This document shows, one piece after another, positions 1 through 61,924 of a stretch of 64,000 nt of DNA (positions are counted from its first letter, which is position 1; each line of letters opens with the position of its first letter). This DNA is from a virus (taxonomy: Duplodnaviria > Heunggongvirae > Uroviricota > Caudoviricetes): positions 1 to 64,000 of the IMG/VR virus record IMGVR_UViG_3300038393_003162. The stretch is one strand, 5' to 3'. Both the position numbers and the translations under genes were made by a program. The notes under the pieces are model-generated. The model made no database searches. It was given only the letters and a program-made list of their open reading frames with translations, and was not told the DNA's origin.

Positions 1-288
1 ATGCGAGTCTACTTGACCAAGGACGTATGCCGCACGGGCAAGATCACCGAGGCGGAAGGGACGGTCTTGACGGGTCATCTCGACCGTATCCAGGTCAATG
101 GCATCTCGTCCCATCGACTCGACCGAGTAGTTCACAAGCCCCATTGGCACGAGACCATGGAAGAAGCCCAGACCGAAGTTCAAGGCAGCTTACAGCGAAT
201 GATCGAAGGTCTGGAGCGGTCGATGTCGCGGGACGCCGAACGGCTCGACAAGGCGAGGCAGTGGTTGGTAAAATTCCAGGAGCAATAG
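1..288 (+). CDS. hypothetical protein
   Basis: 95-aa ORF heading a run of tightly packed plus-strand genes. Confidence 0.6.
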   Translation: MRVYLTKDVCRTGKITEAEGTVLTGHLDRIQVNGISSHRLDRVVHKPHWHETMEEAQTEVQGSLQRMIEGLERSMSRDAERLDKARQWLVKFQEQ

Positions 289-42311: not shown

Positions 42312-42347
42312 GTGCTATAAACCTTGAGAATAATCAAGATTCTGCAC
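42312..42347 (-). CRISPR. solitary degenerate copy of the array-1 repeat
   Basis: GTGCTATAAACCTTGAGAATAATCAAGATTCTGCAC, 227 bp beyond the array end. Confidence 0.8.
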
Positions 42348-42574: not shown

Positions 42575-43189
42575 GTGCTATGCCTATCGAGAATAATCAA
42601 TAGGCTGCACTCTTGAGCAACCGCTTCAAAGGGTTCTTTGGGATGTGCTATGCCTATTGAGAATAATCAGTAGGCTGCACGCAATAACCCTATCAGGATC
42701 GTCGCCAAGAGACTTCGTGCTATGCCTATTGAGAATAATCAATAGGCTGCACCTGTTTCGAAGACGAGTTTGGTGGATGGGTCGCTTGGTGCTATGCCTA
42801 TTGAGAATAATCAGTAGGCTGCACCCCACCAGTAATGTTGGAGGCACCACCATTCAAAGTGTGCTATGCCTATCGAGAATAATCAATAGGCTGCACTAGA
42901 TCAGGCGGTTCCATAGATCAGAGTTGATCTCGTGCTATGCCTATCGAGAATAATCAATAGGCTGCACCACCTTGAGGGCTTGGAGATCCTCAAACAGAGC
43001 CGTGTGCTATGCCTATCGAGAATAATCAATAGGCTGCACAGGCGTCCTTTGATCCTAAGTTAGCATGGGAATATGTGCTATGCCTATCGAGAATAATCAA
43101 TAGGCTGCACCTGCTGCCGGGCTTATTGTGAGTATGTGAGTAGCGGGCTCCAAGTGCTATGCCTATCGAGAATAATCAATAGGCTGCAC
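42575..43189 (-). CRISPR. CRISPR array 1 (type V): 9 repeats of 36 bp, 8 spacers of 34-43 bp
   Basis: minus-strand repeat GTGCAGCCTATTGATTATTCTCGATAGGCATAGCAC; plus-strand starts 42575, 42645, 42717, 42789, 42861, 42932, 43004, 43075, 43154; leader between the array and the cas gene. Confidence 0.97.
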
Positions 43190-43326
43190 TGGGGTTTTCT
43201 AACCTATTAACCGACAAAGGGTTGCGATTCTACTTTTCAAGCATCTCGTGATGTTGCCTGTTGGGATTTAAAGTATGCCTGTTTACCATGAGATATCATT
43301 GCCCTAAGTCGGTATTGTTTTTGAGT

Positions 43327-46101
43327 TTAAGCCGAATCAAGCATCTCTTGTGGGGTGATATTGCTGGAAGTTGGTGTTTGCCAGAGGGTTAGATGCGATT
43401 TATCGTCATTTGGCTGTTGTTGCTGGGAGGTCCATGATTCCTTAAGTTCCTTTCGCAAGAGTTGATGCTGTTTCCATGGCAACCACTCATCATAGTGTCT
43501 ATAGAACGGGCGTCTATTGGTTCCTTGTGCGTGGCTGGCGTATTCCTTGAGTTTCTTGGCTGTGACTTCCTCTAGTTCTCCTACGAGGTTTTTGCCGAGT
43601 TTGAGGACGAAGGTGTTGTATCCGAGTCTGGTCATAGCGGCTTTGAATCGTTTGCCCTCTTGATCGGGGACATAGAGGGATCGCGGTTCGATGCCATCCT
43701 TGACGACGGTTCTCATCCAGATCGAGTTGGCATCCTGATATCTGGTCCAGAATCTTCGTTGAAGGTTCTGTGCGGCATTGAGGTCTGAGTCGACCGTGGT
43801 CACATTGCCTTCCCTCTGGACGTAGAGGATTTCCTTCTCATTCTCGTCCCTGAATCCGTACTCACCGGTCTGGGCATCGATCTGTGAGGAATCCCTCGGG
43901 TCGATGAGTTGGAGAGCGATCCCGTGGGGCGTGAGGAAGTCCACGAGGTAATTCTTGATTTCCCTTGCCGACCAGACTTCGAGCAACTGGTTTTCCTGTT
44001 TGGTTCGTGCGAGCGAGAACTTGAAGTTTTCGAGGTCTTCGATGAGGACGACGTGTGCCTGTTGATAGAGTGCGTAGTGTGCGATAGCGGCGGCGATCTT
44101 CTTGATTTGGTCCTTCTTGATGTTCCTGAGGGTTCTGAGATGTCTGGAGAAGTGCCTTGGGTCTCTCCGTAGTCCCGGCTGGAGTGGTTCTTGGTCTTTG
44201 TATCTCCATGACTTCATGAGGGAGATGTATTTTTTGTAGACCATGATATACTTGATTGAGTCGGCTGAGACGCCTGTATGCCTGTGGGTATAAGTTCTCA
44301 GGTTCCTGAAATGTCTGGCGATATTGCCGATTGTGCTGTTGAGTTCGTTGAGGAGGTCATAGGGTTGGCTCGTGGGATTGATTCCGGCGAGCTTGAATGC
44401 CTTGTCGTAAGGTTTGAGGTCTTCGTCTTGGTTTTTCTGTAGGTCTTTATAGAGGTAGATGAGTTTCTTAGCGGCGTAGATCTTGTCGTCGAGGTTCTTG
44501 ATTTGGTCTACGAATTCTTGGGAGTGGATGGTCCCGATCTTGATTTCCTCGATCTTGGTGGCTTGCCCGAGGTTGGGTACTTGGTAATCGTCTTTTGTGG
44601 CTGTGTGATTGTCTTTGAGTTGATAGGTTGTGAGGGCGAGTGTCGGATTGATGTTGAGGTCGACGGAGATTGCCTTGAGACCTACCTTGATGTCTGGGAG
44701 ATATTGGTCAGCTTTCTTGTCATTTGCGGCGGTGTTGAAGTAGGTGATGGTATTCTTAAGAGGCTTGAAGTCGAGGGCTTGGTTGCCTTTCTTGTCGGTC
44801 TTGTAGTTCTCATAGAGTGGGTCATTGAATTTGGTCTGGACATTGAGTGGGAGCGAGAGGTAGACTTGCCCGAGGTATCCGTTGGCGAAGTTGGTTGGAT
44901 CGATGGTCCTGAGCAGTTGGTTATTGAATCTGAGATAGGGTTCTTTAAGGATGGCGGTCGTGGGAGTTTGCCTGAGGTTTCCGGTTTTGTATTGGAACTG
45001 GAAGTTCTTAGTTCCCTTGATCGGTTGGATTTCGAGGTCGATGAAGTATCTTGATGGCAGGAGTTCGAGGGTATGGGACTTGAGTTGGGTGATATTCCTA
45101 TGGTCTAGAAGTTCGAGGGTTGCGTAGAGTTTGCTATTGGTTTGCTTGATGGAGAATCCGAGGTAATTTTCCCCGAAGTGAGCGTCTTGGGGGAGATTGT
45201 GCGTGTGGGGGGTTGGGACGCTGGCGTTTTGCTTTGCGTCTTCGTTGAGATATCTGACGGCTTCATCTCTTTCAGTGAAGAGGGCGATGAAGTCGATTTC
45301 CTGGAGGTTGAGCCAGAGGTCTTGATATTGGTCTTGAAGTAGGTTGTAGGGTGTTTGGTTGGGGGCTTGCCCTTTGATGAGTTTCTGCCTGGTTTTTTGC
45401 CATCGTGCGAGGAATTTGGCATTTGCCTTGAACTTGGGGTCTTGTTCGGCTTGCTGCTTCCATTCCTGGTAGAGATTCTCTTGGGTGGGGAATTGATTGG
45501 CGTGGTCGACGATCTTCTGTGTGTCTTCTTTTAGGGCTTGATACTCTTTCTGGGTATTTTCATCGTTGGCTCGCCAGTTGCGGAAGAGTGCGATTGCGGC
45601 GCAATATGCGGACTTGTGTAACTTGAAGGGGAGTTGCTTGGTGTTATTGGTGTTAGTCAGTGGGAAGATATTTTCATCCCAGAGTTTTCTCAATGCCTTG
45701 AGTGGGGGCGAGGCGTTTTCTTTGCCGCCCGATTCGATGAGGCTGCCGTTTTCCTTGAATCTCCTTGCGAGCATTGCCTGGTAATAGAATGGATTTGGGT
45801 CTTTTTGGATACCATCGATGAGTTGGTCGAAGAGTGGGAATGCCTGGTCGGGGTCCATGTGCTTGGCGTAGTTGGTTCTCTTCTGGTCGAGTAGTTCTTG
45901 GGAGACTTGCTCGCCTTTGGTGGTGGTATAAGGCTGGTTGTTAAGGGTCATGAAGAGGTCAAAGAGTTGTGCAACCAGATCATTGTGGCAGATGTGTGTC
46001 GCGGCGATATCCTTCCGGACCTCGTCGGGGATGAATCGGAACCTGAGGTTGGTACTCTTGAGGCACGCGGGCTTGAGGCTGTTGTCTTTATCGTTTGCCA
46101 T
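43327..46101 (-). CDS. cas12: type V CRISPR effector, Cas12b/Cas12h-related, 924 aa
   Basis: RuvC-I AISVDLNIN, RuvC-II VLIEDLENF, ENQLLEVWS, SSQIDAQTG, RuvC-III DSDLNAAQNLQRRFW; adjacent array with a repeat ending in GCAC. Confidence 0.9.
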   Translation of the reverse strand: MANDKDNSLKPACLKSTNLRFRFIPDEVRKDIAATHICHNDLVAQLFDLFMTLNNQPYTTTKGEQVSQELLDQKRTNYAKHMDPDQAFPLFDQLIDGIQKDPNPFYYQAMLARRFKENGSLIESGGKENASPPLKALRKLWDENIFPLTNTNNTKQLPFKLHKSAYCAAIALFRNWRANDENTQKEYQALKEDTQKIVDHANQFPTQENLYQEWKQQAEQDPKFKANAKFLARWQKTRQKLIKGQAPNQTPYNLLQDQYQDLWLNLQEIDFIALFTERDEAVRYLNEDAKQNASVPTPHTHNLPQDAHFGENYLGFSIKQTNSKLYATLELLDHRNITQLKSHTLELLPSRYFIDLEIQPIKGTKNFQFQYKTGNLRQTPTTAILKEPYLRFNNQLLRTIDPTNFANGYLGQVYLSLPLNVQTKFNDPLYENYKTDKKGNQALDFKPLKNTITYFNTAANDKKADQYLPDIKVGLKAISVDLNINPTLALTTYQLKDNHTATKDDYQVPNLGQATKIEEIKIGTIHSQEFVDQIKNLDDKIYAAKKLIYLYKDLQKNQDEDLKPYDKAFKLAGINPTSQPYDLLNELNSTIGNIARHFRNLRTYTHRHTGVSADSIKYIMVYKKYISLMKSWRYKDQEPLQPGLRRDPRHFSRHLRTLRNIKKDQIKKIAAAIAHYALYQQAHVVLIEDLENFKFSLARTKQENQLLEVWSAREIKNYLVDFLTPHGIALQLIDPRDSSQIDAQTGEYGFRDENEKEILYVQREGNVTTVDSDLNAAQNLQRRFWTRYQDANSIWMRTVVKDGIEPRSLYVPDQEGKRFKAAMTRLGYNTFVLKLGKNLVGELEEVTAKKLKEYASHAQGTNRRPFYRHYDEWLPWKQHQLLRKELKESWTSQQQQPNDDKSHLTLWQTPTSSNITPQEMLDSA

Positions 46102-46154
46102 GGTTGGTTGATTTCTGTTATGTGGTTAGTTTTGTGCGACTGATTATACGTTGT

Positions 46155-46189
46155 GTGCTGTAGACCTCAGGTATAATTGAGTCTTGCAT
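46155..46189 (-). CRISPR. second solitary degenerate array-1-type repeat upstream of cas12
   Basis: GTGCTGTAGACCTCAGGTATAATTGAGTCTTGCAT; about 24/36 identical to the 42312 copy, with compensatory stem CTCA/TGAG. Confidence 0.55.
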
Positions 46190-46356
46190 GATTCATGACT
46201 TGGGGAGACATTTATTTCAGCCTCCCCAAGTCATGGTTTAATTCTAGCATAAGTCTTATTTGGTGTCTAGGTCAATTGTTGTTGTTTTAGGGTCTAAAAC
46301 TCGATCAGAGTCTCTTGTCGGCGATCTCGATAGTGTTCGCCGACGAGATTGCGGCT

Positions 46357-46563
46357 TTAGTTGTACAGGATGTATAGGTCTTCGAGCGTCTGCACTCCCA
46401 CCTGGTAGAGCATCTTATAGATTGAGTATTCGAGGAGTTCGTATCCTTCGCTAGGGAGATAGTCCTTGGTGCTATGGAGTATGCCTTGGTATTGGTCGAC
46501 GATTGCCTTGAATGCTGGGATGTTCTTGAGTTGTTCTAATTCATGTTCTTGTGCTTCTGTCAC
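46357..46563 (-). CDS. hypothetical protein
   Basis: GTG start with AAGGA RBS. Confidence 0.5.
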   Translation of the reverse strand: MTEAQEHELEQLKNIPAFKAIVDQYQGILHSTKDYLPSEGYELLEYSIYKMLYQVGVQTLEDLYILYN

Positions 46564-46808
46564 AGGACATATCCTTCCGTAAGTGACTTATTGATTTTTC
46601 TTTGGATTTCCTGACAGTCGTCCTTCACCTGTTTGGTCATGTGGCTGACGACGGCTTGTTCGTAGGCGTTGAACGCGGCATCGATTAGGGCTTCATCGTC
46701 TTTCCTCCATAAACGCCCTCTACGAGACTTCTATCATGGGTACGGGGGATTCGTCGTTTTACCTGTCCGGATCGCGTCACGGGGCTTCTGGGAGCCTTCC
46801 TGGGCATC

Positions 46809-47360
46809 CTAGCCTGGGGCATTGGGTTCGGAGATCATTTCGTTTTTCCTTCTGAAGTTTTGGATATAGGATTTGAGGTTTTGGAGTTGGGTTTGTTGTT
46901 GTTCATTTTGTTGTTTATTTGGGATGAGTAAGTCGTATGAATCCTGTGCGAGTTTTATCATTATTTTCATGTTTGTTGTGTCATTGGCTGTGAATTGTAA
47001 TTGGTGCAGTTGGACTTTGGTTCTATAGTGGATTTGGTTGTCGTTCTTGGTTTCCCAGATATAGAGTCTAGGTTTTAGGGTTGAGGAGGTGGTAATGACG
47101 AAGTGGAGAGAGTGGTCTGTGTGATTTGGATGTTTGGTCTGATAGTGTTTCGCGGGTTCCCAAGAGGTCTTGATATTTTCGTTGATTTTTTTGAGGGAGT
47201 CATTGATGTGTTCTTTTCTGTCGATTTCCACGAGGTGTTTATTTTTCATGGTATAGACGGCGTCGATTGTGGAGATATAGGTTGTATTTTCTTGTTGATT
47301 CTGCTTGATGAAGGCGAGGTCCCAGCGGGCGAGATTCTTGGGGATAGTGGTATACATCAA
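46809..47360 (-). CDS. C-terminal-signature family protein
   Basis: LQNLKSYIQNFRRK; close paralog of the next ORF. Confidence 0.75.
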   Translation of the reverse strand: MMYTTIPKNLARWDLAFIKQNQQENTTYISTIDAVYTMKNKHLVEIDRKEHINDSLKKINENIKTSWEPAKHYQTKHPNHTDHSLHFVITTSSTLKPRLYIWETKNDNQIHYRTKVQLHQLQFTANDTTNMKIMIKLAQDSYDLLIPNKQQNEQQQTQLQNLKSYIQNFRRKNEMISEPNAPG

Positions 47361-47929
47361 TATTTCCTTCTGAAGTCATGGACCTGGGATTTGAGGTTTT
47401 GGAGTTGGGTTTGTTGTTTGAGGTCTTGTGGATTCTGGGTGATTTCGGTCTGTTGTGTTTCTTTGGTCTTGCAGGATTGTGCGGTTCTTCTTTGGACATC
47501 TTTGAGTGCGGCTGGGACATTATCGGAGTAGGTATAGGTTCTGAATGGGCGTTTGAGGTCTTTGTAGGTGAAGTGTTGCGCGTGGTTGTATTGGAACGGG
47601 ACATCGAGTACGTAGAGTTTGAGTGTATGGCTGTGTGGTGTGGCGAAGAAGTGGAGTGAGTGGTCTGGGTGATTTGGGTTTGTGGTCTGATAGTGCCTGA
47701 TAGTTTCCCAGAGGAGTGTGCTTTCTATTTTTTTGTGGTCGATTTGGTCGAAGAGGGTGCAGGCGTAGCTGCCCTTGTCGGCTTTTTCGAGGTGATGGTG
47801 TTGGAGTGTGAAGATGATGGAGTCGTAGGTGATGTAGGTAATTTCTTCGATTTGGATTTTGTAGGCATAATCCCAATTTTGGATTTCGGGTACATTCATT
47901 CGATTATTTTCTCCGGTAGCGTGTATCAT
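47357..47929 (-). CDS. C-terminal-signature family protein
   Basis: LQNLKSQVHDFRRKY. Confidence 0.75.
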   Translation of the reverse strand: MIHATGENNRMNVPEIQNWDYAYKIQIEEITYITYDSIIFTLQHHHLEKADKGSYACTLFDQIDHKKIESTLLWETIRHYQTTNPNHPDHSLHFFATPHSHTLKLYVLDVPFQYNHAQHFTYKDLKRPFRTYTYSDNVPAALKDVQRRTAQSCKTKETQQTEITQNPQDLKQQTQLQNLKSQVHDFRRKY

Positions 47930-47944
47930 GTATTTTGTTCCGAC

Positions 47945-48469
47945 TCATTCGATTTGCATCGAGTTGCTTTGCCTGAAGGTTTGGATTGCCTTGAGGGTTT
48001 CTTGTTTGTATTGGTCTTGATTGTGCTTATGTTTATGCTTGGTTGGTTCGAGGGAATCGAAGGCTTGCTTGAATGCGTAGTAGGCGTTGGGGATCGAGAA
48101 TCTTTCGTAGGTTCCGATGACCTGGGTGGCGGCGAGGTTGTTTGGGTCGAATCGTCTTGAGATGAGTGTGGGGTTATCCCGCTGGGGCTTGTAGAGGAGA
48201 TAGGCGAGGATTTGCCCGTTCTCGATGGTGGGGTGCGGGAGTTCGATTGCCTGGATACTGTCGATGTTATTGGGCGACGGCTTGTAATAGTTGACGAGGT
48301 CGTTATAGGCTTGGTGCCTGTCGTAACTGGCGTGGAGGGTTTTGATTTGGTCGATATTGTTCATAAAGGGATTGACGGTGTAGAGGTATTTGTCGGTGAT
48401 GATGAAGGTGCTGCCGGGGGTGACGATGAAATAGGCTTGGGTCCAGTTGTAGAGTGGTGGGACGGGCAT
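47945..48469 (-). CDS. C-terminal-signature family protein
   Basis: MPVPPLYNW...KQETLKAIQTFRQ. Confidence 0.75.
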   Translation of the reverse strand: MPVPPLYNWTQAYFIVTPGSTFIITDKYLYTVNPFMNNIDQIKTLHASYDRHQAYNDLVNYYKPSPNNIDSIQAIELPHPTIENGQILAYLLYKPQRDNPTLISRRFDPNNLAATQVIGTYERFSIPNAYYAFKQAFDSLEPTKHKHKHNQDQYKQETLKAIQTFRQSNSMQIE

Positions 48470-48479
48470 TGTGTTGGTC

Positions 48480-48974
48480 CTAGTAATTGGTTCGGAAGTG
48501 GTTGATTGCTTTCTTGAGGTCTTGTTTGCGTTGGATCTGGGTGTTTGTGGTGTCATCTTGCGGCGGCTTACCTATGAGGCTGTCGTATATCTTCTGGGCG
48601 GTGGCGACGACTTGGTCCTTTTGGAGTTTGATCTGGATATGGGCTTGTTGTTGGTCGGTCTCGTAGGGTGAGAAGTGATAGAGTGCGAAGTAGCTGGAGA
48701 TATTGATGTCGGGGATGGCGACGAAGAGTCTCGGCTTCGAGGCGAATAGCCTGTGATATTTTGCCGGTTTCCAGTCGAGCTTACCTTCTTTCAGGTCGAT
48801 TTCCTGCTTGATTCGAAGGTACGAGAAGTTATAGACTGTGTTTTGGGTGATGGCACCCGAGAACCGGTCGATGCAGAATACTCTGGTGGTGGTGACGATG
48901 TATCGTTTATCGGGGGTGTAAGCGGTCTGGGCATCGATCCATTGGTCTAGCTCAGGAAAATTTTTGCGTGGCAT
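48480..48974 (-). CDS. C-terminal-signature family protein
   Basis: KQDLKKAINHFRTNY. Confidence 0.75.
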   Translation of the reverse strand: MPRKNFPELDQWIDAQTAYTPDKRYIVTTTRVFCIDRFSGAITQNTVYNFSYLRIKQEIDLKEGKLDWKPAKYHRLFASKPRLFVAIPDINISSYFALYHFSPYETDQQQAHIQIKLQKDQVVATAQKIYDSLIGKPPQDDTTNTQIQRKQDLKKAINHFRTNY

Positions 48975-49026
48975 TTTCGTCGATCCTGTTAGTTGACGAG
49001 TCCGCGTGGGTTTAGTTTATTTGGTC

Positions 49027-49536
49027 TCAGGGGTTTAGGGTCCGGAAATTGTCGATAATATTCCTGAGGGATTTCCTGTTGGTTTCCTTGAATTGGGCGA
49101 CTTCCTCTGGCTCTTGGGCTGGGGGATAGAATTGGTCGAAGAATTCCTGGAGGAGTCTATGGTCGCGAGAGAGTGATCCAGCGGCGAATTCGAACCGGTT
49201 GGTTGGTCCTAGGTGGTTGGGTTTACTCCTCGTGAAGACGCGGACGACGTTCGTGTAGGTTTGCTCATTGTAAGTGAGGAGGAGTTGGAGGTAGTTCTCC
49301 GGTTCGTCGGGGTGAGGGAACCCCAAGTGGCGGAAGTAGAATGTCTTGGTGTTCACGGTTGCGTCCCTGATCGCCTGGAACTTCTGGGTCCTGGATTTGT
49401 GGGGGACTGCCGTGAACACCTGGTCTTTGTTATTAGTGAGTATATATGCATATTCTTCGGTGACGAAATAGGTGTAAAGATCGGTTTGGATGGCTTTGGC
49501 GATGAGCCACTGGCTGAAGGGCGGTATGACGGGCAT
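49027..49536 (-). CDS. C-terminal-signature family protein
   Basis: RKSLRNIIDNFRTLNP. Confidence 0.75.
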   Translation of the reverse strand: MPVIPPFSQWLIAKAIQTDLYTYFVTEEYAYILTNNKDQVFTAVPHKSRTQKFQAIRDATVNTKTFYFRHLGFPHPDEPENYLQLLLTYNEQTYTNVVRVFTRSKPNHLGPTNRFEFAAGSLSRDHRLLQEFFDQFYPPAQEPEEVAQFKETNRKSLRNIIDNFRTLNP

Positions 49537-49545
49537 TTTTAGTCC

Positions 49546-50031
49546 TTAAAAATTGGCTTCCCGGAAGTGTTTTGCTGCGCGGATGACATCCTGCCGGAAC
49601 TGTCGTTGTTGGTCGGTGTTCATTTTAACATTTATGGGTTTTTTGTCAAGGAATCTCCGGAGGATCTCGTTAGCTTTGGGGATGATTTCGGGTCCTTTGA
49701 GGCTGGCGACGATTTTGGCATAAACATCAGGCTTATTCGGGTCGAAGTGGTAGAGGAAGGTTCCCAGGAACGTGGTGGTTGGAATGAGTATGAAATGGAG
49801 TTGGTCGTTTTGGTCATTGATGTAGGCTTCGGTCCAGAGGAGGTTTTGGTGGACGGAGGTCTCGATGGCTTGGATCGTATTCAGCACGTGGTAGATGGGC
49901 TGGTCGTAGATGATCCGATTGGTATTGCGGTTGGTCTGGATGAGTCGATTGTCGGTGACGACGTACCTTGTGTCGATGGTATGAGCGGTTTTGGCTTTGG
50001 TCCATTGGTCGAGTCCGGAAATCTCTGGCAT
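49546..50031 (-). CDS. C-terminal-signature family protein
   Basis: RQDVIRAAKHFREANF. Confidence 0.75.
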   Translation of the reverse strand: MPEISGLDQWTKAKTAHTIDTRYVVTDNRLIQTNRNTNRIIYDQPIYHVLNTIQAIETSVHQNLLWTEAYINDQNDQLHFILIPTTTFLGTFLYHFDPNKPDVYAKIVASLKGPEIIPKANEILRRFLDKKPINVKMNTDQQRQFRQDVIRAAKHFREANF

Positions 50032-50042
50032 CTTTTGGTCCT

Positions 50043-50570
50043 TTAGAAATTGGCTCTTCGGAAGTCGGCGATTGCCTGCTGGATGGTTTTGCGATAGACC
50101 AGCAAGGATTCCTGGTTCTGGATTTCCTTGAGTGATTGCTTGTGTTTGTATATTTCATTGGCTTTGATGGCGGCGACGGTGAGGGTCGCGTGGTTTTCGA
50201 TCTGGACTTGCTTGGTGACGGGATCGATGAGGATGAGTTGCACTTGGTCGGTCGTCACGACGACATATTCCGGGAACTCTGCGTCTTTCTCTGACGGTTT
50301 TGCGGAGCTACCGCAGTCGGCGTAGGCGACGTTGAGGTCGACCGGCAGAGTTTCGTAGGCTTTGATGATCTCCTCGTGGTGGGAGAATCTGCGGGGTTCC
50401 TCGGAAGCGGTCATGCTGTTCGGGTCGATCTTGAGTATCTTCCAAGGGTTCATGGGGTGGTCATTGCTGAAGTAGGTGATGAGGTAGGGGGTACCGGGTG
50501 TCGCATGTTTCACCGGGACGAACACCTTAATCATGGTCCAGCCGATATCATAGATCGATCGTTTGGGCAT
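50043..50570 (-). CDS. C-terminal-signature family protein
   Basis: RKTIQQAIADFRRANF. Confidence 0.75.
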   Translation of the reverse strand: MPKRSIYDIGWTMIKVFVPVKHATPGTPYLITYFSNDHPMNPWKILKIDPNSMTASEEPRRFSHHEEIIKAYETLPVDLNVAYADCGSSAKPSEKDAEFPEYVVVTTDQVQLILIDPVTKQVQIENHATLTVAAIKANEIYKHKQSLKEIQNQESLLVYRKTIQQAIADFRRANF

Positions 50571-50580
50571 TGTATGGGTC

Positions 50581-51087
50581 CTAATAATTAATTCTGAAGT
50601 TATGAATAGCTTGTTGGACGGTATGCTTGTTCTGGAGGAGTCGTCGTTGATTGGTCTCTTGGGGTTTGTCCGATAGTCCGGATACCAGCCGTTCGGCTGT
50701 GACGAATTGGAGTGCGTTCCGGTTGAGGCTGGAATAGTACAGGATGTTCGTTTCGTTCTTGCGATGACGGACATAGGTCATGTGGTATTTGAGCCAAGGG
50801 TTTGTCTGGGTTCGCTCATGGATGAAGAAATAGTGTTGCTCCAGGGTATGCCAGTCGATGTGGCATGAGACCAGGGCATCTTTCTTCCACGAGAGGTTCT
50901 CTGCGGGTTCTCCGAGTATAGTCGTGACCCAAGAAACCGCTTGATCGCGGGTGGCATTCGATCGCGAACGGAATAAATTACACTGCTGGTTGATGACATA
51001 GGAAATGGGCATATTTCCTTGCAGCAGGAAGGCGAATAGACCTCTAGGGTCATCGAGGACTTCGGCATTCATCCATTGGAGGGGCAT
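50581..51087 (-). CDS. C-terminal-signature family protein
   Basis: MPLQW...KHTVQQAIHNFRINY. Confidence 0.75.
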   Translation of the reverse strand: MPLQWMNAEVLDDPRGLFAFLLQGNMPISYVINQQCNLFRSRSNATRDQAVSWVTTILGEPAENLSWKKDALVSCHIDWHTLEQHYFFIHERTQTNPWLKYHMTYVRHRKNETNILYYSSLNRNALQFVTAERLVSGLSDKPQETNQRRLLQNKHTVQQAIHNFRINY

Positions 51088-51098
51088 TGTTTGGTCCT

Positions 51099-51674
51099 TT
51101 AGAAACTGGTCCTGAAATTCTCGATGGCATTCTTGAGGTCTTGTTTGTTCTGGATGAGTTTTTCGGGGTCCGGGTCTGGTTGTTTCGGGACTGATTTCGG
51201 GCGCGGCTTGGGCATGTAGCTTTTCTCCTGTGCCGTGAAGGTGAGTTCCTCGGCGAGTGTGTGAGCGGCGGTCATACTTGGCAGGTACCATTTGTGGATC
51301 TGCCTTGAGTTCTTGCTGCTGGTGTAGACATAGAGCAAGCAATACGGGTTGGCTTCAAACCGTGCTTTCGAAATCTCGCTGGGGAAGGTGTCGGGCGGTG
51401 TCCGGCGAAAGGCATAGAACTGGACATTTTCGAGCGTATTCTCGGTCATGTCGATGGCATGGTTGGCATCATCGGACCACTTGAGTTCGGCGGCAGTGGT
51501 CTCGAATTTCTCGGACACGTAGCTTTCGAGTTGATTCGGCGTCGCGTGGACCTTGGCATCCACGTCGGTCGTGATCGTGTTGATGGTATAAGTATGCGAA
51601 GAGTGTTGGAAGCAAAGGACGTTTTGCTTCGACGGTTTTTCAAACACTCTTATCGGGGACCATTTTAATGGCAT
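51099..51674 (-). CDS. C-terminal-signature family protein
   Basis: MPLKW...KQDLKNAIENFRTSF. Confidence 0.75.
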   Translation of the reverse strand: MPLKWSPIRVFEKPSKQNVLCFQHSSHTYTINTITTDVDAKVHATPNQLESYVSEKFETTAAELKWSDDANHAIDMTENTLENVQFYAFRRTPPDTFPSEISKARFEANPYCLLYVYTSSKNSRQIHKWYLPSMTAAHTLAEELTFTAQEKSYMPKPRPKSVPKQPDPDPEKLIQNKQDLKNAIENFRTSF

Positions 51675-51695
51675 CTTGTGTTCCTTTGATTTGAT

Positions 51696-52817
51696 TCACT
51701 TGATAAGGTCGCGGAAATTCTGGATCGCCTTGAGGGTGGTTTCCTTGTTCTGGACGAGTTGCTGTTGGTCCGGTTCCCGAGGCTCGTCATCCAGTCGCTT
51801 CTTTCGCCTATACGAATACGAAAAATTCTCAATATACGAGGAATATTTCCTGGTCGAAAACTTCCCGAAAGTGGAAAGGTGGTTGAAGTTGAAAGTATAA
51901 CTTTGGTTTTGGTTGAATGTGTCGGCGTCGTGCTTGTCGGCAGCGGTCTTGGCATCCATCAGGAGATTGAATACTTGCGTGGTATTATGGGTTGCCTGGG
52001 TGTCTTCATGTCCGAGCGTGTAGAGGGTGTAAAGATTTTTCTTGTCAGCCGAGCAAACTTCGATGAAATAAAAGATATTCTTCGACAAGTCTGTGTTTCT
52101 GGTACACACGACCGAGTGTTTCGTGTATCCGCCTGGGAGCTTTGCCTTGGCATGAGCCTCGATAGCGGCGATGTAATTAAAGTCAAGACACTCGACCTTG
52201 ACAGTGCAGTCGTTGGGGGTAAAGAAGAAAGCCTTGAGGATCGGGTCATCACCCGACTTCGAAGTCGCGATGAAGCAATGCGGTTCGTCGGGGTTATTGG
52301 GCTTAAGGAGGAATCCCGATCGCCAGACGAGGAGATTCTCGGGATTCTTCTTGGTCGGGGCTTGGTCTTGGATGACTTCCGTGATTTCGGTTTGGTCTGG
52401 CATCGTTTCTTGCCCTTCGTTGGTCGATGCGTTGTTAAGGATGTTGTTGGCTGTTTTGATGACATCATCCTTGGAGTCGCAAATCACTTGGGTCGGAATG
52501 TTCTTGGAGTTAGCATCAAAATGGACGAGAAGGAATTCCTCCGTGGGAGTTCGTTTGTAGAAGAAAATATGCCCCTTACTTTCGGAGAATGCGACTGCAT
52601 ACTTCCACTGGAGAGTGCGACCGGCTCTCGCCTCGGCGTCGTCGGTCGCGGTGGAAATGAGCATGAACGTCTGGCTATAATGATGGTGTTCCTGTTTGCT
52701 GAGGATATGGAGGCGAGGGGTCCAAGTCGAGGTGTTGATGAAATAATAATGGGAATCGGTCTCTGCGACCTTACAGTAGTCCCACGCGAGAACTTGTCCT
52801 TGGTCTGGCATAGTCAT
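51696..52817 (-). CDS. C-terminal-signature family protein (double length)
   Basis: KETTLKAIQNFRDLIK. Confidence 0.75.
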   Translation of the reverse strand: MTMPDQGQVLAWDYCKVAETDSHYYFINTSTWTPRLHILSKQEHHHYSQTFMLISTATDDAEARAGRTLQWKYAVAFSESKGHIFFYKRTPTEEFLLVHFDANSKNIPTQVICDSKDDVIKTANNILNNASTNEGQETMPDQTEITEVIQDQAPTKKNPENLLVWRSGFLLKPNNPDEPHCFIATSKSGDDPILKAFFFTPNDCTVKVECLDFNYIAAIEAHAKAKLPGGYTKHSVVCTRNTDLSKNIFYFIEVCSADKKNLYTLYTLGHEDTQATHNTTQVFNLLMDAKTAADKHDADTFNQNQSYTFNFNHLSTFGKFSTRKYSSYIENFSYSYRRKKRLDDEPREPDQQQLVQNKETTLKAIQNFRDLIK

Positions 52818-52832
52818 GTCCTTATGGTTTGG

Positions 52833-53552
52833 TCAGAATTCATTTTCGTTTTGGAAGTCCCACGGATCGATTTCCCAATCATCGTCTTCGACCACATCGA
52901 CATTTACAGGGGTCGGGGCAGGCGGGGGTGCAGGCTCAGAGTCATCATCCTCATCATCATCACCCATCTGGAAAAGTTTATCCAAGAATGTGTGGTTGAC
53001 GATGCTGGGATCGTCGATTGGGATGGCGGCAGTTTCCTCGTCGATGATCCCGCCGAGCTTTTCGACGAGGTTGCAGAGCTTGACGGCAACGCACTCGATC
53101 GTGTCGAAGGTCCCGAAGGTAGTGAAGTTCTTCGCCTTCCGGAGTTGCCCGAGGAATTCGCTGGTGTCCTGGGGGGTGCTGCACCGATGCTCCAATTCTT
53201 TTCGCATCATCTCCAGCGTCTCGACCAGTTTCTCGACATCGATTTGCTTCGTCTCGGTCACTGCTTCACCCTGCTGGGGGATGTAGCCTTCTTCGTAGGT
53301 GGCTCCGAGGGACATGCCTGGTTCGACCAGATGGTTATGGACCAATTGGGCGACTTCTTTGGCGTCCTCTGGAGACTTGAATGGTCCCCGAGTCCCGTCA
53401 CCCTTGCCGTTATCCAGGACGACGGAGAAGTTCCAGCCCCCGCTCGGATTTTTCTCGACCCTGTACCGGGCATTGGGGTTATCCTGTGCGTGCGCGGTAA
53501 AAACTTTCCCGTATCCCAGCTTGTTCCATTTGAGTTTCTGCGGCTCTGGCAT
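52833..53552 (-). CDS. hypothetical protein (EEGYI subfamily, acidic tail)
   Basis: AAGGAG RBS; MPEPQKLKW; YEEGYI. Confidence 0.75.
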   Translation of the reverse strand: MPEPQKLKWNKLGYGKVFTAHAQDNPNARYRVEKNPSGGWNFSVVLDNGKGDGTRGPFKSPEDAKEVAQLVHNHLVEPGMSLGATYEEGYIPQQGEAVTETKQIDVEKLVETLEMMRKELEHRCSTPQDTSEFLGQLRKAKNFTTFGTFDTIECVAVKLCNLVEKLGGIIDEETAAIPIDDPSIVNHTFLDKLFQMGDDDEDDDSEPAPPPAPTPVNVDVVEDDDWEIDPWDFQNENEF

Positions 53553-53648
53553 CTCGATCTCCTTCTTGGTCAGCCTCTTGACAGGTCTTCAATATACGAT
53601 TTCGCTTAGTGTGGTCCGATGTTGACTTCGTTTCATCCCATTTGTTGG

Positions 53649-54383
53649 TCACATGTAGCCTTGGATTACCGAAAGATAATTGCTGAGTTCGTAAAATTCG
53701 GTCATGAGGTTCGGCTCGATCTCCTTAAGATCGAGTGCCACTTGTTCGTAACTATCGCGATCGGCTCTGAGCGACTTGATTTGCTCGATGAGGTCTCGCT
53801 GGCATCGGATGAATCGTTCGAGCGGGGATTCGTCTCCCTTGGCGACTTCAGTTCCAGCTTCTTCTTCGTAGTTGGCGATGTAGCATTCCCCGTATTCCTT
53901 GGTTTCCTTGGTCTTCTTAGGTTTGGGTTTGGTGAGAATCTGATAGTTGCACTTATCAGCCATGATCTTGACATCCGCCATGGAATCATAAGTCAACGGC
54001 AATTTCCAATATCCCCCTTCCGGCTTATAAATTACGAGCGTTGCCTTATTGTCTGTTACATAAGTATGGACTATGAAGAAATATCCTGCCTGGTTCTGGG
54101 CTTCCGACCGAAGGTTTGTAATCGCGTTCCATTCTAGTTTGCCCACCGACTTGATGTGTTCTTGGTCTATTTTCTCAGCTAAAAGGCGTGCTTCTTTTGG
54201 GTTTTCGCAAAGACGGACCCGCCCTACCCCGTCGTCTCCGGTGTATACAAGTCGGGTGATCAGATTGTTAGGACCGGAACTGACCTCGACAGTGTATTCC
54301 TTCTCGGTGACCGTGCTGGTGCCGTAATGCGTGGTATATTTCCCGCCTTGAGAAACCTTCCATTCGAATGCGACTAAAAACAT
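53649..54383 (-). CDS. hypothetical protein (ECYI subfamily)
   Basis: AAGGA RBS; YGECYI. Confidence 0.7.
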   Translation of the reverse strand: MFLVAFEWKVSQGGKYTTHYGTSTVTEKEYTVEVSSGPNNLITRLVYTGDDGVGRVRLCENPKEARLLAEKIDQEHIKSVGKLEWNAITNLRSEAQNQAGYFFIVHTYVTDNKATLVIYKPEGGYWKLPLTYDSMADVKIMADKCNYQILTKPKPKKTKETKEYGECYIANYEEEAGTEVAKGDESPLERFIRCQRDLIEQIKSLRADRDSYEQVALDLKEIEPNLMTEFYELSNYLSVIQGYM

Positions 54384-54513
54384 GAGGTCATCCTTTCGTT
54401 TTGGTTTCAAAACATCATATCAAAAAACACGCTCCAGGTCAAGCCAGGAGCGTCTCTTGGGTCGGGATGGTGGAACAGGACGTTTTCTTCGGGTCGCTGG
54501 TTCTGGGGGCATT

Positions 54514-55494
54514 CTAGAAGGATTCCCGGAAGGCAGCGATGGCTTTGAGGGTCGATTGTTTGTTTCGATTGAGTAATTCCTGGGAGACCGGCTCTGGGCG
54601 TCGTTCCTCGGTCGGGAGATGCTTTAGATTTTCTTTGGCTTGGGCGTCTTCCTTGGCTTCGTGGACCGACTTAAAATGACTGACGACCGGCTTCGCGCTG
54701 TCGTTGGCGAACATCGTTTGCCGGTATTTGTCCAGGAAAGGATAGATGAGCCAGAAATGGGTCTTCATCGGAGTGACAGAGATTGCGTTGATCATCATGT
54801 GAAGTGGTCGCCAGGACAAATAATCATGACCAACGAACTTCTCGAATGCTTTCTTGGCACCTTCTTCCGTGACATAGGGCGTGACACTGACCTTGGACTT
54901 TCCATCGCGGAAAATGTAGAGAAGACTGATGTTGTTGCTGGGGATGAGGGCGGCATAAGCGAGTTGGTTTTCGTTATGGACGTATGACGATGTGTAGATG
55001 CCTTCGAACCACTTGGGTGAAGTGGTCGTTTTCGATTTGGGGAGAGGCTTGAGGGATTTGAAGTTGTTGGCTGCGGTCCTTGCTTTGGGCAGACTAGTGT
55101 ATTCTCCTCGGTCTCGGGGCGAATCGTAATTGGCGTTGAGGTGGACGAGCTTCCACAGGTGGTCGTTGGCTGTGATCACGAAACAATCGAACGCTTCTTT
55201 GTCGTCGGCGTCTTCCTTGACCGTTTTGGCATATGATCCCGATACCCAATTGAGAGAGATGACTTTGGCGGTCGAGAGGGCGTGGATGGTCGCTCCAAGT
55301 TGATTCTGATGAATGGTGACGACCGGCTTCGAGTATGCCTTGGGGATGACCGCGAGAATCCGGTAATTATGGGTGGTTTCTTCGCCATCCGCGACCGCCT
55401 TGACATAATAGTTGGTCGCATCCTGGGCGATGCGTGCTGGCTTCCAGTCGAGGGCTGTATCTGCGTCTGGCATGGTTCGCATCCTTTGGGGCAT
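54514..55494 (-). CDS. C-terminal-signature family protein (double length)
   Basis: KQSTLKAIAAFRESF. Confidence 0.75.
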   Translation of the reverse strand: MPQRMRTMPDADTALDWKPARIAQDATNYYVKAVADGEETTHNYRILAVIPKAYSKPVVTIHQNQLGATIHALSTAKVISLNWVSGSYAKTVKEDADDKEAFDCFVITANDHLWKLVHLNANYDSPRDRGEYTSLPKARTAANNFKSLKPLPKSKTTTSPKWFEGIYTSSYVHNENQLAYAALIPSNNISLLYIFRDGKSKVSVTPYVTEEGAKKAFEKFVGHDYLSWRPLHMMINAISVTPMKTHFWLIYPFLDKYRQTMFANDSAKPVVSHFKSVHEAKEDAQAKENLKHLPTEERRPEPVSQELLNRNKQSTLKAIAAFRESF

Positions 55495-55545
55495 TAATAA
55501 CGCAAAACTTCATGTTATTAATGCGGATTAGGGTGTCGGTCGGCG

Positions 55546-56148
55546 TTACCAATTGTCTGTGATGATGATCGCTTCTTCTTCGGCGATTTCCGGTGGCGGC
55601 GAGGGCTGCTGATTGATTTTGTGGAATGTCAGAGAAAGGTTATAGAGGATATCGTCGAGGACGATGATTTCCTCCAAGATATCGCACGGGGCATTTGGGT
55701 CATTGGTTCGGAGCATATTTTTGGCTAGTTGTTCGTTCTTCTTTGGCGATCCGCCTACTTTCTTCAATTCGGCAGCGAGGTCTTTGATGGTTTGTGCGAG
55801 TCGGGCGGCTTCCTGGAGGGGTGTTTCTTCGGCGACATCCGTCGTGATATAGCATTCTTCGAAAGGCATGTTGTCCGGCTCCTTCTTTTGGTCACGTCGC
55901 ATTGTATTGAAATATGACAAGTCCCACCGATTGGCATATCTTACGGCTTCGTTCCAGTCGGCATGGAATGTCGCCTGTTCTCCGGAGGCTTTGAGGAATG
56001 TCGTAAGCTGATAATTTTGAGCCATGCCAAGATATTTAATTTTGAAATTTGTAGATTCGTTTCTTTTACTTTGAGAGGTCCATGTGGAGAAGTCATCCAC
56101 TGGATGATGTGCTTTCCATGTGAGATTCAGGTCCTTTTGTTCCGGCAT
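55546..56148 (-). CDS. hypothetical protein (EECYI subfamily)
   Basis: MPEQKDLNLTW; FEECYI. Confidence 0.7.
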   Translation of the reverse strand: MPEQKDLNLTWKAHHPVDDFSTWTSQSKRNESTNFKIKYLGMAQNYQLTTFLKASGEQATFHADWNEAVRYANRWDLSYFNTMRRDQKKEPDNMPFEECYITTDVAEETPLQEAARLAQTIKDLAAELKKVGGSPKKNEQLAKNMLRTNDPNAPCDILEEIIVLDDILYNLSLTFHKINQQPSPPPEIAEEEAIIITDNW

Positions 56149-56268
56149 TGCTTCTTCGCCTTTTTTGATCGGCTAAAAACTGATTGGATGTCAATTACCT
56201 ATTGTAGCACAGGTCTAAATTTAGGTCAATAGGTCATTAATAAGTAATCGAAGTTTAATTTATTCTAG

Positions 56269-56976
56269 GTGATCGCTATTCAGTATTTCGGGGGCAAGGG
56301 AAAGGTCTGTCGGGAATTGGCTGGTTACATCAATTCGCGGCTTGGGGATGGTCAGGCGTATTGGGAGCCATTCTGCGGTGCGTGCTGGGTCATGAGCAAT
56401 GTATGTGGGTCGATGCGTATCGCGAGCGACCTGCATCCGGAGTTGATTGCGATGTGGCGGGCGTTACAGACGGGCTGGGAGCCGCCTGCTGTGGTCACAG
56501 AGTCGGAGTATCAATTGATACGGGCGGGGACGGACATGGCATTGCGTGGCTTCGTGGGTTTCGGCTGTAGTAACAGTGGTAAATGGTTTGGCGGATACGC
56601 TAGGAACAAGACTGGTCGTAATTACGCATCGAACGCCAGGAATTCGTTGAAGAAGAAGATGATGGGCTTAGGGGATGTGCGGTTCGAGTGCGGGGGTTAC
56701 AATGAGGTCGAGGTGCCGAGCGGGTCATTGATCTACTGCGATCCTCCTTATCGGGGGACGGTGGGGTATTCGGTGGGTCGGTTCGACCATGATCGGTTCT
56801 GGGAATGGGTGCGGAAGAGGTCGGTTGAGAATACGGTCTTGGTCTCGGAGTATAGTGCTCCTGAGGATTTCACTTGTGTATGGGAGATTGAGACCAAGAC
56901 CGATATCAAGGATAGGACGGGGGAGAAGTCGAGGCGGGTTGAGCAGTTGTTTGAACACTCTTCGAGTGTGGAATGA
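56269..56976 (+). CDS. DNA adenine methyltransferase (D12/Dam-like)
   Basis: QYFGGKGK, WEPFCG, IYCDPPY, VLVSEY. Confidence 0.9.
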   Translation: MIAIQYFGGKGKVCRELAGYINSRLGDGQAYWEPFCGACWVMSNVCGSMRIASDLHPELIAMWRALQTGWEPPAVVTESEYQLIRAGTDMALRGFVGFGCSNSGKWFGGYARNKTGRNYASNARNSLKKKMMGLGDVRFECGGYNEVEVPSGSLIYCDPPYRGTVGYSVGRFDHDRFWEWVRKRSVENTVLVSEYSAPEDFTCVWEIETKTDIKDRTGEKSRRVEQLFEHSSSVE

Positions 56977-57011
56977 GAGATAGTCTTAGATGGAGAGGGA
57001 CGCGGCGCAAA

Positions 57012-57888
57012 GTGTTAAACGCCTCTAGAGCGTGGAATGAGGATCACCAGAGGCTTTTCAACTCCGATGGCGGTCCGTGTTAAACGCCTCTAGGGCGTGG
57101 AGTGAGGATCACCCTCTTGCCAACACACGATTCCTCCCGGCTTGGTGTGCTAAACGCCTCTAAGGCGTGGAGTGAGGGTTACTTTCATTTGAAATCGAAC
57201 TCAACAGTGTTAAACGCCTTTAGACCGTGGAATGAAAGTCATGCGTGCATAATTCGCCGGACGTCCTGGTTTTCGTCCTGTGTCGAACGCCTCTAGGGCG
57301 TGGAGTGAGGATCAGGTTAACTTATTGGTTGACGTCCTCAACTGACCGCTTGTGTTAAACGCCTCTGAGACGTGGAGTGAAGATCACCACGGCGCGTCCG
57401 ATGTCGTGTCGCGCGGACCGGATGAGTGTTAAACACCTCTAGGGCGTGGAATGAGGATCACTTCTTCGTCTAGCAATATCCTAATAATTTGGTATGTGTT
57501 AAACACCTCTAGGGCGTGGAATGAGGATCACTCCACTATTTCAAGGGCATCTACTCGAAGATGCATGTGTTAAACGCCTCTAGGGCGTGGAATGAGGATC
57601 ACCGTGATTGAGCGTACACGTCGAAGGTATGTTCTCGGTGTTAAACGCCTCTAGGGCGTGGAATGAGGATCACCATCCAAGGACCACCTCCCTGATCTGC
57701 GCCACCGGGCGTGTTAAACGCCTCTAGGGCGTGGAATGAGGATCACCTCGTGCGTGATGCCATACATCCGCCGCACCTCGTGTGTTAAACGCCTCTAGGG
57801 CGTGGAATGAGGATCACCAGATACGCTCCCACAGCCAAGCTGTATTAGGGTCGTGTTAAACGCCTCTAGGGCGTGGAATGAGGATCAC
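57012..57888 (-). CRISPR. CRISPR array 2 (orphan): 13 repeats of 36 bp, 12 spacers
   Basis: plus-strand repeat GTGTTAAACGCCTCTAGGGCGTGGAATGAGGATCAC at 57012, 57077, 57147, 57207, 57280, 57352, 57426, 57496, 57567, 57638, 57711, 57782, 57853; degenerate copies on the left imply the leader is on the right. Confidence 0.97.
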
Positions 57889-58183
57889 TGCCTCATCTTA
57901 AGCTCTTGATGTCCAACCACTTAGACACTTGGTTTTCAAGCATCTTGCTCATCGGCATCAACAAGGCAATAAGATGAAGCATTGGCGTGAGCCATCATAG
58001 CCAGAACGTCTTGTCAAAGAACAACTTACGAAGAATCATGCACCTGGGATTCGGACTTTCAGCCTTAAGTCCTTATTTTGAAAGAGATTTAAGACAATTT
58101 GGCAATCTTACTCTCTGATCCTGGAAAGGTACTTGATTTCCCAGCATTTAGTATACCAAGTCGAACGACTTTTGCCAACTAAA

Positions 58184-61150: not shown

Positions 61151-61237
61151 GGCAATGTTCCTTGTTCTGGTCGCAAGAACGACCTGTATTTCGTGGAATG
61201 TCAGTTCTAATCAACAGTCGAACAGATGGTGGTGATG

Positions 61238-61924
61238 TTATTGTTTAGGAGCAAGTTCAACCTGAACGAGATCGCCATTCAGCCACCATTCTTTGGTGCC
61301 GTTTTCGCGTTCTATGGCTGGACCATCTACTCGATGGTATCTGTCATTTAGGCTCCACGCTTTATAGCCGTCGGCGTGTACGACGGCTGGTCCATCTTCG
61401 CGATGACGCCTGCCATTCAACCACCATTCTTTGCTGCCATCGGCATGCTCAATGGCAGGTCCATCTTCGCGATGCTTTTTGCCATCCTGATACCAATATT
61501 TGGCTCCGCTGGGACATTCGATGGCGGGTCCGTCTGCTCGATGAAACTCATCAGCTTGATACCATTCTTTGATACCATCAGCCCGTTCGATGGCTGGACC
61601 GTCTTCTCGGTGGAGCTTGCCGTTTTGATACCATCTCCTCGTACCATCTGGCTCGATGATTGCCGGTCCATCGTCACGGTGAAGCTCACCATCCTTCAGC
61701 CACTTCATCTTGCCCTTGAGGGTCTTGATGTAGATGATCTGTTGGATCATATCGATGACCTGGATCTCGCCGACTCCCTTGAGAGTCATCAATGGCGTTG
61801 AGAGCAAGGGAGCCATGGGAACCACCGAGGCACCAGCAATCGCCACAACCGGAGTGGTCGCGACTGCACCGCCCGCGATAGTCGCCTTCAGCATCTCCCG
61901 ACGATTGAGATTGGAATCAGTCAT
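61238..61924 (-). CDS. HREDGPA-repeat protein with Tat-like signal
   Basis: LNRREMLK followed by a hydrophobic stretch; GVGEIQVID block shared with the 2-5 kb paralogs; 6 repeats. Confidence 0.85.
   Translation of the reverse strand: MTDSNLNRREMLKATIAGGAVATTPVVAIAGASVVPMAPLLSTPLMTLKGVGEIQVIDMIQQIIYIKTLKGKMKWLKDGELHRDDGPAIIEPDGTRRWYQNGKLHREDGPAIERADGIKEWYQADEFHRADGPAIECPSGAKYWYQDGKKHREDGPAIEHADGSKEWWLNGRRHREDGPAVVHADGYKAWSLNDRYHRVDGPAIERENGTKEWWLNGDLVQVELAPKQ

Follow-up and report, generated by a model that had tools for sequence, protein, structure and literature searches.

How does a virus-borne type V CRISPR array, accompanied by a Cas12 gene but by no recognizable cas1, gain new spacers? 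The question is raised by IMGVR_UViG_3300038393_003162, a 253,022-base virus record whose first 64 kb (hereafter, the window) hold two arrays with unrelated repeats: array 1, adjoining the gene of a compact Cas12, and array 2, with a repeat of the type I-B MYXAN (I-B2) family. An earlier note on this DNA had proposed that the type V array adopted a type I-style leader, so that a single, probably host-encoded, adaptation machinery updates both arrays. Our analysis supports shared machinery and names the partner: both leaders carry the layout and the subtype-specific motif of MYXAN leaders, and a Cas4/1 fusion plus Cas2 of that subtype, encoded by the host, probably serves both arrays in trans.

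Two arrays with unrelated repeats share one leader architecture

The arrays, their leaders and the effector gene lie in the window as follows.

42575..43189, minus strand: array 1 (type V), 9 repeats of 36 bp with GTG...CAC ends, strongly self-pairing
43190..43350, minus strand: leader 1, MYXAN type; its outer part runs over the stop codon and final codons of the Cas12 gene
43200..43224: proximal element of leader 1 (+11..+35), TAA...CAA-N4-TTG, where an IHF-like bending protein may bind
43234..43246: first copy of the motif in leader 1, the 13-mer with TCA at +48, in its MYXAN-specific form
43335..43345: second copy of the motif in leader 1, TCA at +148, within the Cas12 coding end
43327..46101, minus strand: compact Cas12 effector, 924 aa, RuvC residues D481, E688 and D773 all present
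57012..57888, minus strand: array 2, 13 repeats of 36 bp with GTG...CAC ends, 12 spacers, I-B MYXAN repeat family
57889..58050, minus strand: leader 2, MYXAN type
57899..57923: leader 2 proximal TAA...CAA-N4-TTA element (+11..+35), best match to the IHF consensus (minus strand, +11)
57933..57945: leader 2 motif copy 1, 13-mer with TCA at +48
58034..58044: leader 2 motif copy 2, TCA at +148

The right-hand array ends were taken as the leader ends because array 2 decays leftwards, from five perfect repeat copies at its right end to degenerate ones at its left, because array 1 likewise ends on the right with five perfect repeats, and because the same repeat side faces cas2 in the bacterial reference locus. 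Counting from these ends, we re-checked the coordinates and letters given earlier: both leaders open with TG, the +26 element reads CAAAGGGTTG at 43215 and CAACCACTTA at 57914, the identical 13-mer TTTTCAAGCATCT begins at +45 in both (43234 and 57933), and both repeats are 36 bp long with GTG...CAC ends. Two further shared features had been missed, namely TAA at +11 in both leaders and a second motif copy, AATCA[AT]GCA[TC]C, at 43335 and 58034, which places its TCA at +148. The two leaders are identical at just 74 of their first 160 bases, and these matches cluster in the motifs. In the 253,022-base record, both strands included, the 13-mer is found at these two places alone, and an in-phase identical run of 13 was reached by none of 199,535 random pairs of 150-bp windows (longest run 12, seen twice). 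Leader 2 has no clear sigma-70 promoter; the only one seen in leader 1 is weak and lies on the opposite strand.

The shared architecture is that of type I-B MYXAN leaders

For comparison with bacterial arrays of the array-2 repeat family, we compiled 32 MYXAN leaders: 26 from 30 loci returned, two more from planctomycetes, three from myxobacteria and one from an IMG/VR contig that carries cas4/1-cas2. Four of the 30 loci, having no array of the family pattern, were left out, and one of them (L330) later served as a held-out test leader; G374 and G369, whose arrays lie at the contig end, and L307, which has a degenerate repeat at its leader side, were dropped, and L332 and L350 were omitted from the models as near-duplicates.

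The motif TCA[ACT]G is present at +47..+50 in 31 of the 32 leaders, compared with 2.6% of random windows, and in all 32 when one variant, added after inspection, is allowed. The check proposed in the earlier note comes out in its favour: the bacterial arrays carry the same motif family at the phase that the note had described for the 13-mer, although none contains the exact phage 13-mer and nine contain TTTTCAAG. A second copy lies 99–101 bp further out in 12 leaders, 89–91 bp in nine, 110–111 bp in two, 120–121 bp in three and elsewhere in six; that is, at whole-helical-turn distances in 26 of 32, the distance being 100 bp in both phage leaders. As to the proximal element, strict CAA-N4-TTR occurs in just 4 of the 32 leaders; YAA is found at +10..14 in 21 and TTR at +32..36 in 17.

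A 50-column model built from 30 MYXAN leaders assigned 34.9 bits to leader 1 and 24.7 bits to leader 2, the two highest values over about 506,000 positions of the record, with 13.3 bits for the next site. Leave-one-out scores of the MYXAN leaders themselves ranged from -9.8 to 34.8 (27 of 30 above 8), and three held-out leaders scored 32.2, 22.2 and 19.3 bits. Trailer ends, solo repeats and ten control arrays, located beside TnpB/Cas12f-like or Cas12b-sized genes, all fell below zero. The proximal YAA...TTR element (+11..+35) by itself accounted for 18.9 and 7.2 bits in leaders 1 and 2, and the fraction of genome sites scoring as high was 0.0 and 0.0006, respectively. When 700 reference-array spacers were compared with the phage, the phage spacers with all loci, and array 2 with four candidate hosts, only short chance matches were returned.

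Leader motifs differ between subtypes

Cas12h-like effectors derive from Cas12b through loss of the adaptation module (PMC10691335). Because of this descent, and because V-B loci also use a Cas4/1 fusion, we tested inheritance of the Cas12 leader from V-B. From 18 V-B loci, 16 leaders were obtained (L461 has no array, and the leader of L464 was not placed). They share the MYXAN geometry but carry GCGAGCG at +47/48, repeated mostly about 90 bp further out. Leave-one-out classification assigned all 30 MYXAN and all 16 V-B leaders correctly; leader 1, that of the Cas12 array, scored 18.1 bits as MYXAN versus 2.2 as V-B, and leader 2 scored 17.6 versus 2.3. The shared geometry recurs in nine I-C and 16 I-G leaders, where the cores are mostly CGCG/GCGAG; none of them exceeds 7.2 bits on the full MYXAN model. 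The Cas4/1 enzymes of V-B and I-G are only about 25–32% identical to the MYXAN enzyme.

Since V-B, I-G and I-C leaders share the geometry but differ in the motif, the phase is general, and it is the sequence of the motif that identifies the subtype. Likewise, because V-B leaders carry another motif, the notion that the Cas12 leader was adopted is favoured over its inheritance.

A second viral locus with a MYXAN-type leader

Searched for three GTGC...CAC 36-mers in tandem, IMG/VR yielded 46 loci. An unrelated viral Cas12h locus (L361; 1508 bits to the Cas12h model, 640 bits to Cas12h1, 27 repeats) has a leader that starts with TG and carries the motif at +49 and at +148, the latter copy inside the cas12h gene; it scored 8.9 bits as MYXAN versus -0.9 as V-B. 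No Cas1 was found in the three partial records of this virus, which are 7–13% complete. Scanning IMG/VR by leader first (120 loci, from 45 of its 64 parts) brought up only the Cas12h virus already known from L361.

A further candidate, L375, looked similar by eye and was rejected when its leader scored -1.6 bits on the MYXAN model; this 88%-complete, 54.5-kb phage lacks Cas1 and has an array of 20 GTG...CAC repeats and a RuvC-like protein of 578 aa (L375:6001-9140). Two more arrays lie beside small RuvC-like genes. One, on a 3-kb contig (L416:1572-2041), has a V-B/I-G-type motif at +48 and 90 bp further; the other (L468:9260-10143) shows, at about +48 and +150, a GCGAACC motif resembling that of some I-C leaders. 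Neither locus contains a match to a MYXAN-like Cas4/1. Their motifs suggest that other donor–recipient pairs exist.

The Cas12 effector belongs to a compact group related to Cas12b

The Cas12, encoded beside array 1, has a split RuvC domain; array 1 has eight spacers (34–36 nt, plus one of 43). D481 and E688 are invariant in 37 sequences, and D773 lies within a conserved third motif. The nearest solved relatives are Cas12X2 (E 4e-44) and CasJ19 (4.5e-27), followed by Cas12b, with Cas12h1 distant (0.0016); identity to database relatives is about 27–31% at best. In a FastTree tree of 42 proteins, which gave long-branch warnings, the phage protein falls among compact proteins of 770–970 aa, apart from both Cas12h and Cas12b. 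Assignment to V-H was rejected, as the match to the Cas12h model is 74.5 bits over residues 451–780 only, compared with 1508 for L361, and the protein forms part of a separate clade. Assignment to V-B was also rejected: there is no cas1, the length is 924 aa rather than 1100 or more, the leader lacks GCGAGCG, and no trans-activating CRISPR RNA anti-repeat was found at 13/18 or better within 41.5–47.5 kb. Judged by these comparisons, the phage Cas12 appears to belong to a Cas12b-derived, Cas1-less group and is placed in neither V-H nor V-B.

Loci of Cas12 relatives were found neither in IMG/VR (queries P0001, A2 and P0003) nor in plasmid or phage collections. Query A3 returned 35 distant TnpB/Cas12f-like loci from IMG/VR, which served as negative controls, and seven weak matches in 401 planctomycete genomes proved to be TnpB-like or Cas12b-sized. 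Directly upstream of the Cas12 gene, a long inverted repeat (window 46196-46236) adjoins a promoter-like site on the minus strand. Beyond the trailer end of array 1 lies one more repeat.

42312..42347, minus strand: lone degenerate copy of repeat 1, 27/36 identical, 227 bp beyond the trailer end, without leader

Array 2 is an orphan array

None of the MYXAN genes cas6, cas3, cas8, cas7, cas5, cas4/1 and cas2 accompanies array 2 anywhere in the 253-kb record; it is an orphan array, not a complete system. Compared with the MYXAN pattern, GTGnTnAACGCC-loop-GGCRT...CAC with a 3' hairpin and an 8-nt handle, repeat 2 agrees in frame and hairpin but has a loop of 5 nt, where the reference arrays have 4. 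An eroded copy lies beyond its left end.

56948..56983, minus strand: eroded terminal copy of repeat 2, 20/36, overlapping the end of a DNA methyltransferase gene

None of 77 GTDB loci found with the tandem-core pattern is an array of the repeat-2 family; JGI returned 108 loci for the repeat-2 core, and the 80 of these that were listed each hold a single match. Phage and plasmid collections yielded nothing useful on relatives of repeat 2.

Stray copies of the repeat were also seen. Outside the window, three solitary repeat-2-like units (G000:C1:107365-107400, 120085-120120 and 143574-143609; 30, 25 and 26 of 36 positions) have kept the hairpin and the 8-nt handle, have lost the 5' part and have no leader; they are candidates for RNA anti-CRISPRs or regulatory guides against a host I-B2 Cascade (PMC10651486; PMC10120712). 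In sequencing run X6, which matches window 57152-57739, a separate contig (depth 5.4) bears another short repeat-2 array with different spacers, which may stem from the unseen part of this phage, from a relative or from the host. The MYXAN-type repeats of viruses in IMG/VR (L303-L322) mostly form mini-arrays of 2–4 repeats with no evident leader motif, unlike array 2.

Adaptation genes, bending protein and likely host

The earlier note had held that a phage-encoded cas1/cas2 elsewhere in the genome would explain acquisition differently. No cas1, cas2, cas4 or MYXAN cas6 and no IHF/HU gene was found in the record (G000), and tblastn of seven MYXAN Cas proteins against its 253 kb gave a best E of 0.15. 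This answers the point for the sequenced part, which CheckV puts at 43% of the genome. The adaptation machinery is likely to be host-encoded.

As to the bending protein, the IHF consensus WATCAANNNNTTR is matched with one mismatch in leader 2 (minus strand, +11) and only with two in leader 1, and the +26 site of both leaders is a poor IHF consensus. PF00216 proteins are present in five of five MYXAN genomes; among eight proteins scanned, only a myxobacterial IHF-alpha exceeded the cut-off, the planctomycete ones being IHF-beta-like and below it. By analogy with other leaders, IHF remains a plausible candidate for the leader-bending protein.

Near-identical DNA is present in soil and rhizosphere metagenomes. 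The record encodes 34 distinct tRNA calls, two aminoacyl-tRNA synthetases, IF3, a ClpX-like ATPase and DnaJ; such a load of translation and chaperone genes is usual in huge phages. We call the virus a phage on the basis of the record's classification, because no capsid gene was found among the proteins scanned (144 against Pfam, 30 against PHROGs). The best match of the ClpX-like protein among 32 genomes is in a Planctomycetota genome (475 bits; next phylum 433), and that of the glutamyl-tRNA synthetase among 24 genomes is in the planctomycete G821 (559 bits; best non-planctomycete 340). These two genes point to a likely Planctomycetota host. Of 401 genomes sampled from one planctomycete class, 35 have MYXAN cas1; of 301 genomes of a second class, 27 have Cas12b.

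Other features of the record were noted in passing. One of the 34 tRNA calls (L003:17149-17222) has a CTA anticodon and is a possible amber suppressor. Several genes in the window (1966-5005 and 59321-61924) consist of 69-bp (23-aa) HREDGPAIE-type repeats. An intergenic motif with the consensus TAACCGGACAC(A/G)CCCTTAG recurs on the minus strand at 7000-41100 of the window and has 65 matches in the record, 62 of them on the minus strand and mostly upstream of small genes, which makes it a likely phage promoter or regulator site. A variant of it precedes the solitary repeat-2-like unit at 107365-107400, and its core is similar, perhaps by chance, to the unusual hairpin arm of repeat 2.

Spacers and protospacer-adjacent motifs

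No self-targeting by phage spacers was detected. A single protospacer was found, for the array 1 spacer at 42825-42860 (36/40 bases), on a contig present in six of seven runs at a depth of 28–51. We take the type I-B systems with an ATG protospacer-adjacent motif (PAM), that of Leptospira included, to be of the MYXAN type. The PAM is ATG for type I-B (PMC9881144) and for Leptospira I-B (PMC8482600), RYR with ATG best for Cas-delta-1 (PMC12721324), and RTR/DHR for Cas12h1 (PMC11830025). Cas-delta repeats begin with GTGCT and end with GCAC or GCACT (PMC12721324 Table S1).

How both arrays may be updated, and by whom

Taken together, these comparisons suggest that a host MYXAN Cas4/1-Cas2, likely from a planctomycete, probably updates both phage arrays in trans. 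The enzyme would insert new spacers at the first repeat of each array. By analogy with known leaders, an IHF-like host protein might bend the leader at the proximal (+11..+35) and distal elements, and this bend could allow the integrase to dock on the two copies of the motif, which are spaced by whole helical turns. What the enzyme would read is the leader together with the GTG/CAC ends of the repeat, not the repeat interior, which would thereby be free to fold for its own effector, such that array 1 would load the phage Cas12, and array 2 the host Cas6/Cascade-Cas3. Spacers picked by MYXAN Cas4 would carry an ATG PAM, selecting for the purine-rich PAMs reported for Cas12h and Cas-delta.

Several observations weigh against this proposal. 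The missing 57% of the genome could hold adaptation genes. The 5-nt loop of repeat 2 may not suit a host Cas6, and no array with the exact repeat-2 core turned up in GTDB, JGI metagenomes or IMG/VR. The scarcity of strict CAA-N4-TTR in the reference leaders counts here as well. The L361 leader reaches only a modest 13.1 bits on the full MYXAN model, and no third type V case with a MYXAN leader was found in IMG/VR or in 401 planctomycete genomes. On the expected PAM side the one protospacer is flanked by CTT, not ATG, weak evidence given that the target has diverged, and the PAMs cited belong to relatives of the phage Cas12 rather than to that protein. Finally, no new leader-end spacers were seen in the contigs of seven runs, and contigs drop rare variants.

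Chance need hardly be entertained as the source of the shared motifs: it is already refuted by the random window pairs, none of which reaches the observed run, and by the external model, under which the two leaders outscore every other of about 506,000 sites. A more serious contender keeps the MYXAN-type integrase for both arrays and has the phage itself encode it, alone or along with a MYXAN Cascade, in the part of its genome that the record lacks. The size of that part speaks for it, as do the loop variant of repeat 2, seen in no host array searched, and the further repeat-2 mini-array on the X6 contig; we nevertheless regard it as unlikely, since none of the seven MYXAN Cas proteins matches the 253 kb, cas genes usually flank their array (as in L291), and almost all huge-phage CRISPR systems lack cas1, cas2 and cas4 (PMC7162821).

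It is quite unlikely, in our estimate, that the leaders are relics or transcription elements, a host leader having been captured with array 2 and copied ahead of the Cas12 array, with no acquisition now. The want of new spacers in the contigs agrees with this, and the lack of a clear sigma-70 promoter leaves room for another role of the motifs; yet the limited, motif-concentrated identity of the leaders fits selection on the motifs rather than a recent copy, the distal motif copy persists inside Cas12 coding sequence both here and in L361, and helical phasing relative to the repeat suits integration (10.1101/2023.05.26.542337). Inheritance of the Cas12 leader from a V-B ancestor with its own Cas4/1-Cas2, the leader now being served by a host V-B or I-G integrase, would accord with the derivation of Cas12h-like effectors from Cas12b minus the adaptation module (PMC10691335), with the geometry shared by V-B and I-G leaders, and with the occurrence of Cas12b in the second planctomycete class. 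We consider it very improbable, as all 16 V-B leaders classify apart from MYXAN while the phage and Cas12h leaders classify with it, and the V-B and I-G Cas4/1 enzymes are so distant from that of MYXAN.

Extending the favoured explanation, service of both arrays by a host MYXAN integrase, we tentatively propose, as a possibility that may well prove wrong, that the compact Cas1-less nucleases derived from Cas12b (Cas12h, Cas-delta, CasJ19/Cas12X and the phage Cas12) form a guild of satellites, mostly viral ones, of the I-B MYXAN integrase that hosts supply. Their V-B leader motif would have been swapped for that of MYXAN, with only the GTG/CAC repeat ends kept, and their PAM would have moved from T-rich to ATG-compatible to fit MYXAN Cas4; the 9-bp motif at +48 would then be a barcode telling, for any Cas1-less array of the Cas4 clade, which integrase is its donor.

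Cas12h and Cas-delta serve as genome-editing tools, and they read purine-rich PAMs that set them apart from other Cas12s. This locus names a candidate integrase partner for a Cas1-less Cas12, which, if true, explains how such a system gains immune memory; the integrase would then read leader and repeat ends, not the repeat body, and one phage would feed its own nuclease and a host Cascade from one borrowed enzyme. Natural controls are at hand in the two unrelated repeats behind one leader and in the V-B, I-G and I-C leaders, which have the same geometry and another motif. The motif could also predict host system and PAM for orphan arrays.

Comparison with known systems

In-trans acquisition is already known, but no report of a pairing of type V with I-B2 was found. 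Literature searches likewise turned up no paper that ties the leader of a type V array to MYXAN adaptation or that describes the motif, although a 2021 survey of bacterial leader motifs may already contain the MYXAN motif. Type IV-A3 arrays are fed in trans by host type I-E Cas1-Cas2, as demonstrated experimentally (10.1101/2023.06.23.546257). Like the phage case, that is a mobile Cas1-less system with a host-like leader, and the PAM of its effector is matched to the donor integrase; however, its repeats also resemble those of the host, whereas the repeat interior of array 1 is unlike MYXAN. The phage case further differs in its class 2 type V effector, its I-B MYXAN Cas4/1-Cas2 donor, and its huge-phage carrier with two arrays.

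Arrays of type VI-B reportedly use II-C acquisition. Type III arrays have been inferred to use type I-B acquisition in trans (PMC8482600), and distinct arrays sharing one acquisition machinery are also described in PMC8092290. In contrast to the phage Cas12, the effectors of the type III and VI-B cases target RNA and are chromosomal, and in the parts of the sources at hand a leader signal is not their evidence.

In type I-F, Cas1-2/3 is docked by two sites and two motifs that IHF folds (10.1101/2023.05.26.542337; PMC13748974). The IHF-folded leaders of I-F, I-C and I-E resemble those of the phage in having proximal and distal bending sites and two subtype-specific motifs within 100–200 bp of the repeat (10.1101/2023.05.26.542337), but the phage motifs are direct repeats with MYXAN sequence, and IHF binding is putative here.

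Among effectors, Cas12h (V-H), Cas-delta and CasJ19/Cas12X are similar in size (about 870–960 aa) and in their 36-bp GTGC...GCAC repeats (PMC11830025, PMC12721324, PDB 8zqc, 8wru), although the phage Cas12 is at most about 31% identical to any database relative and stands apart from Cas12h in the tree. For Cas12h and Cas-delta no adaptation module has been reported (PMC11830025, PMC12721324), and the Cas-delta study goes no further than suggesting reliance on an unnamed co-existing system (PMC12721324).

Finally, huge-phage arrays with host-like repeats are known and are predicted to use host Cas proteins (PMC7162821). Array 2 resembles them as an orphan array of host type; unlike them, it has a full leader and 12 spacers, and it shares that leader with a type V array.

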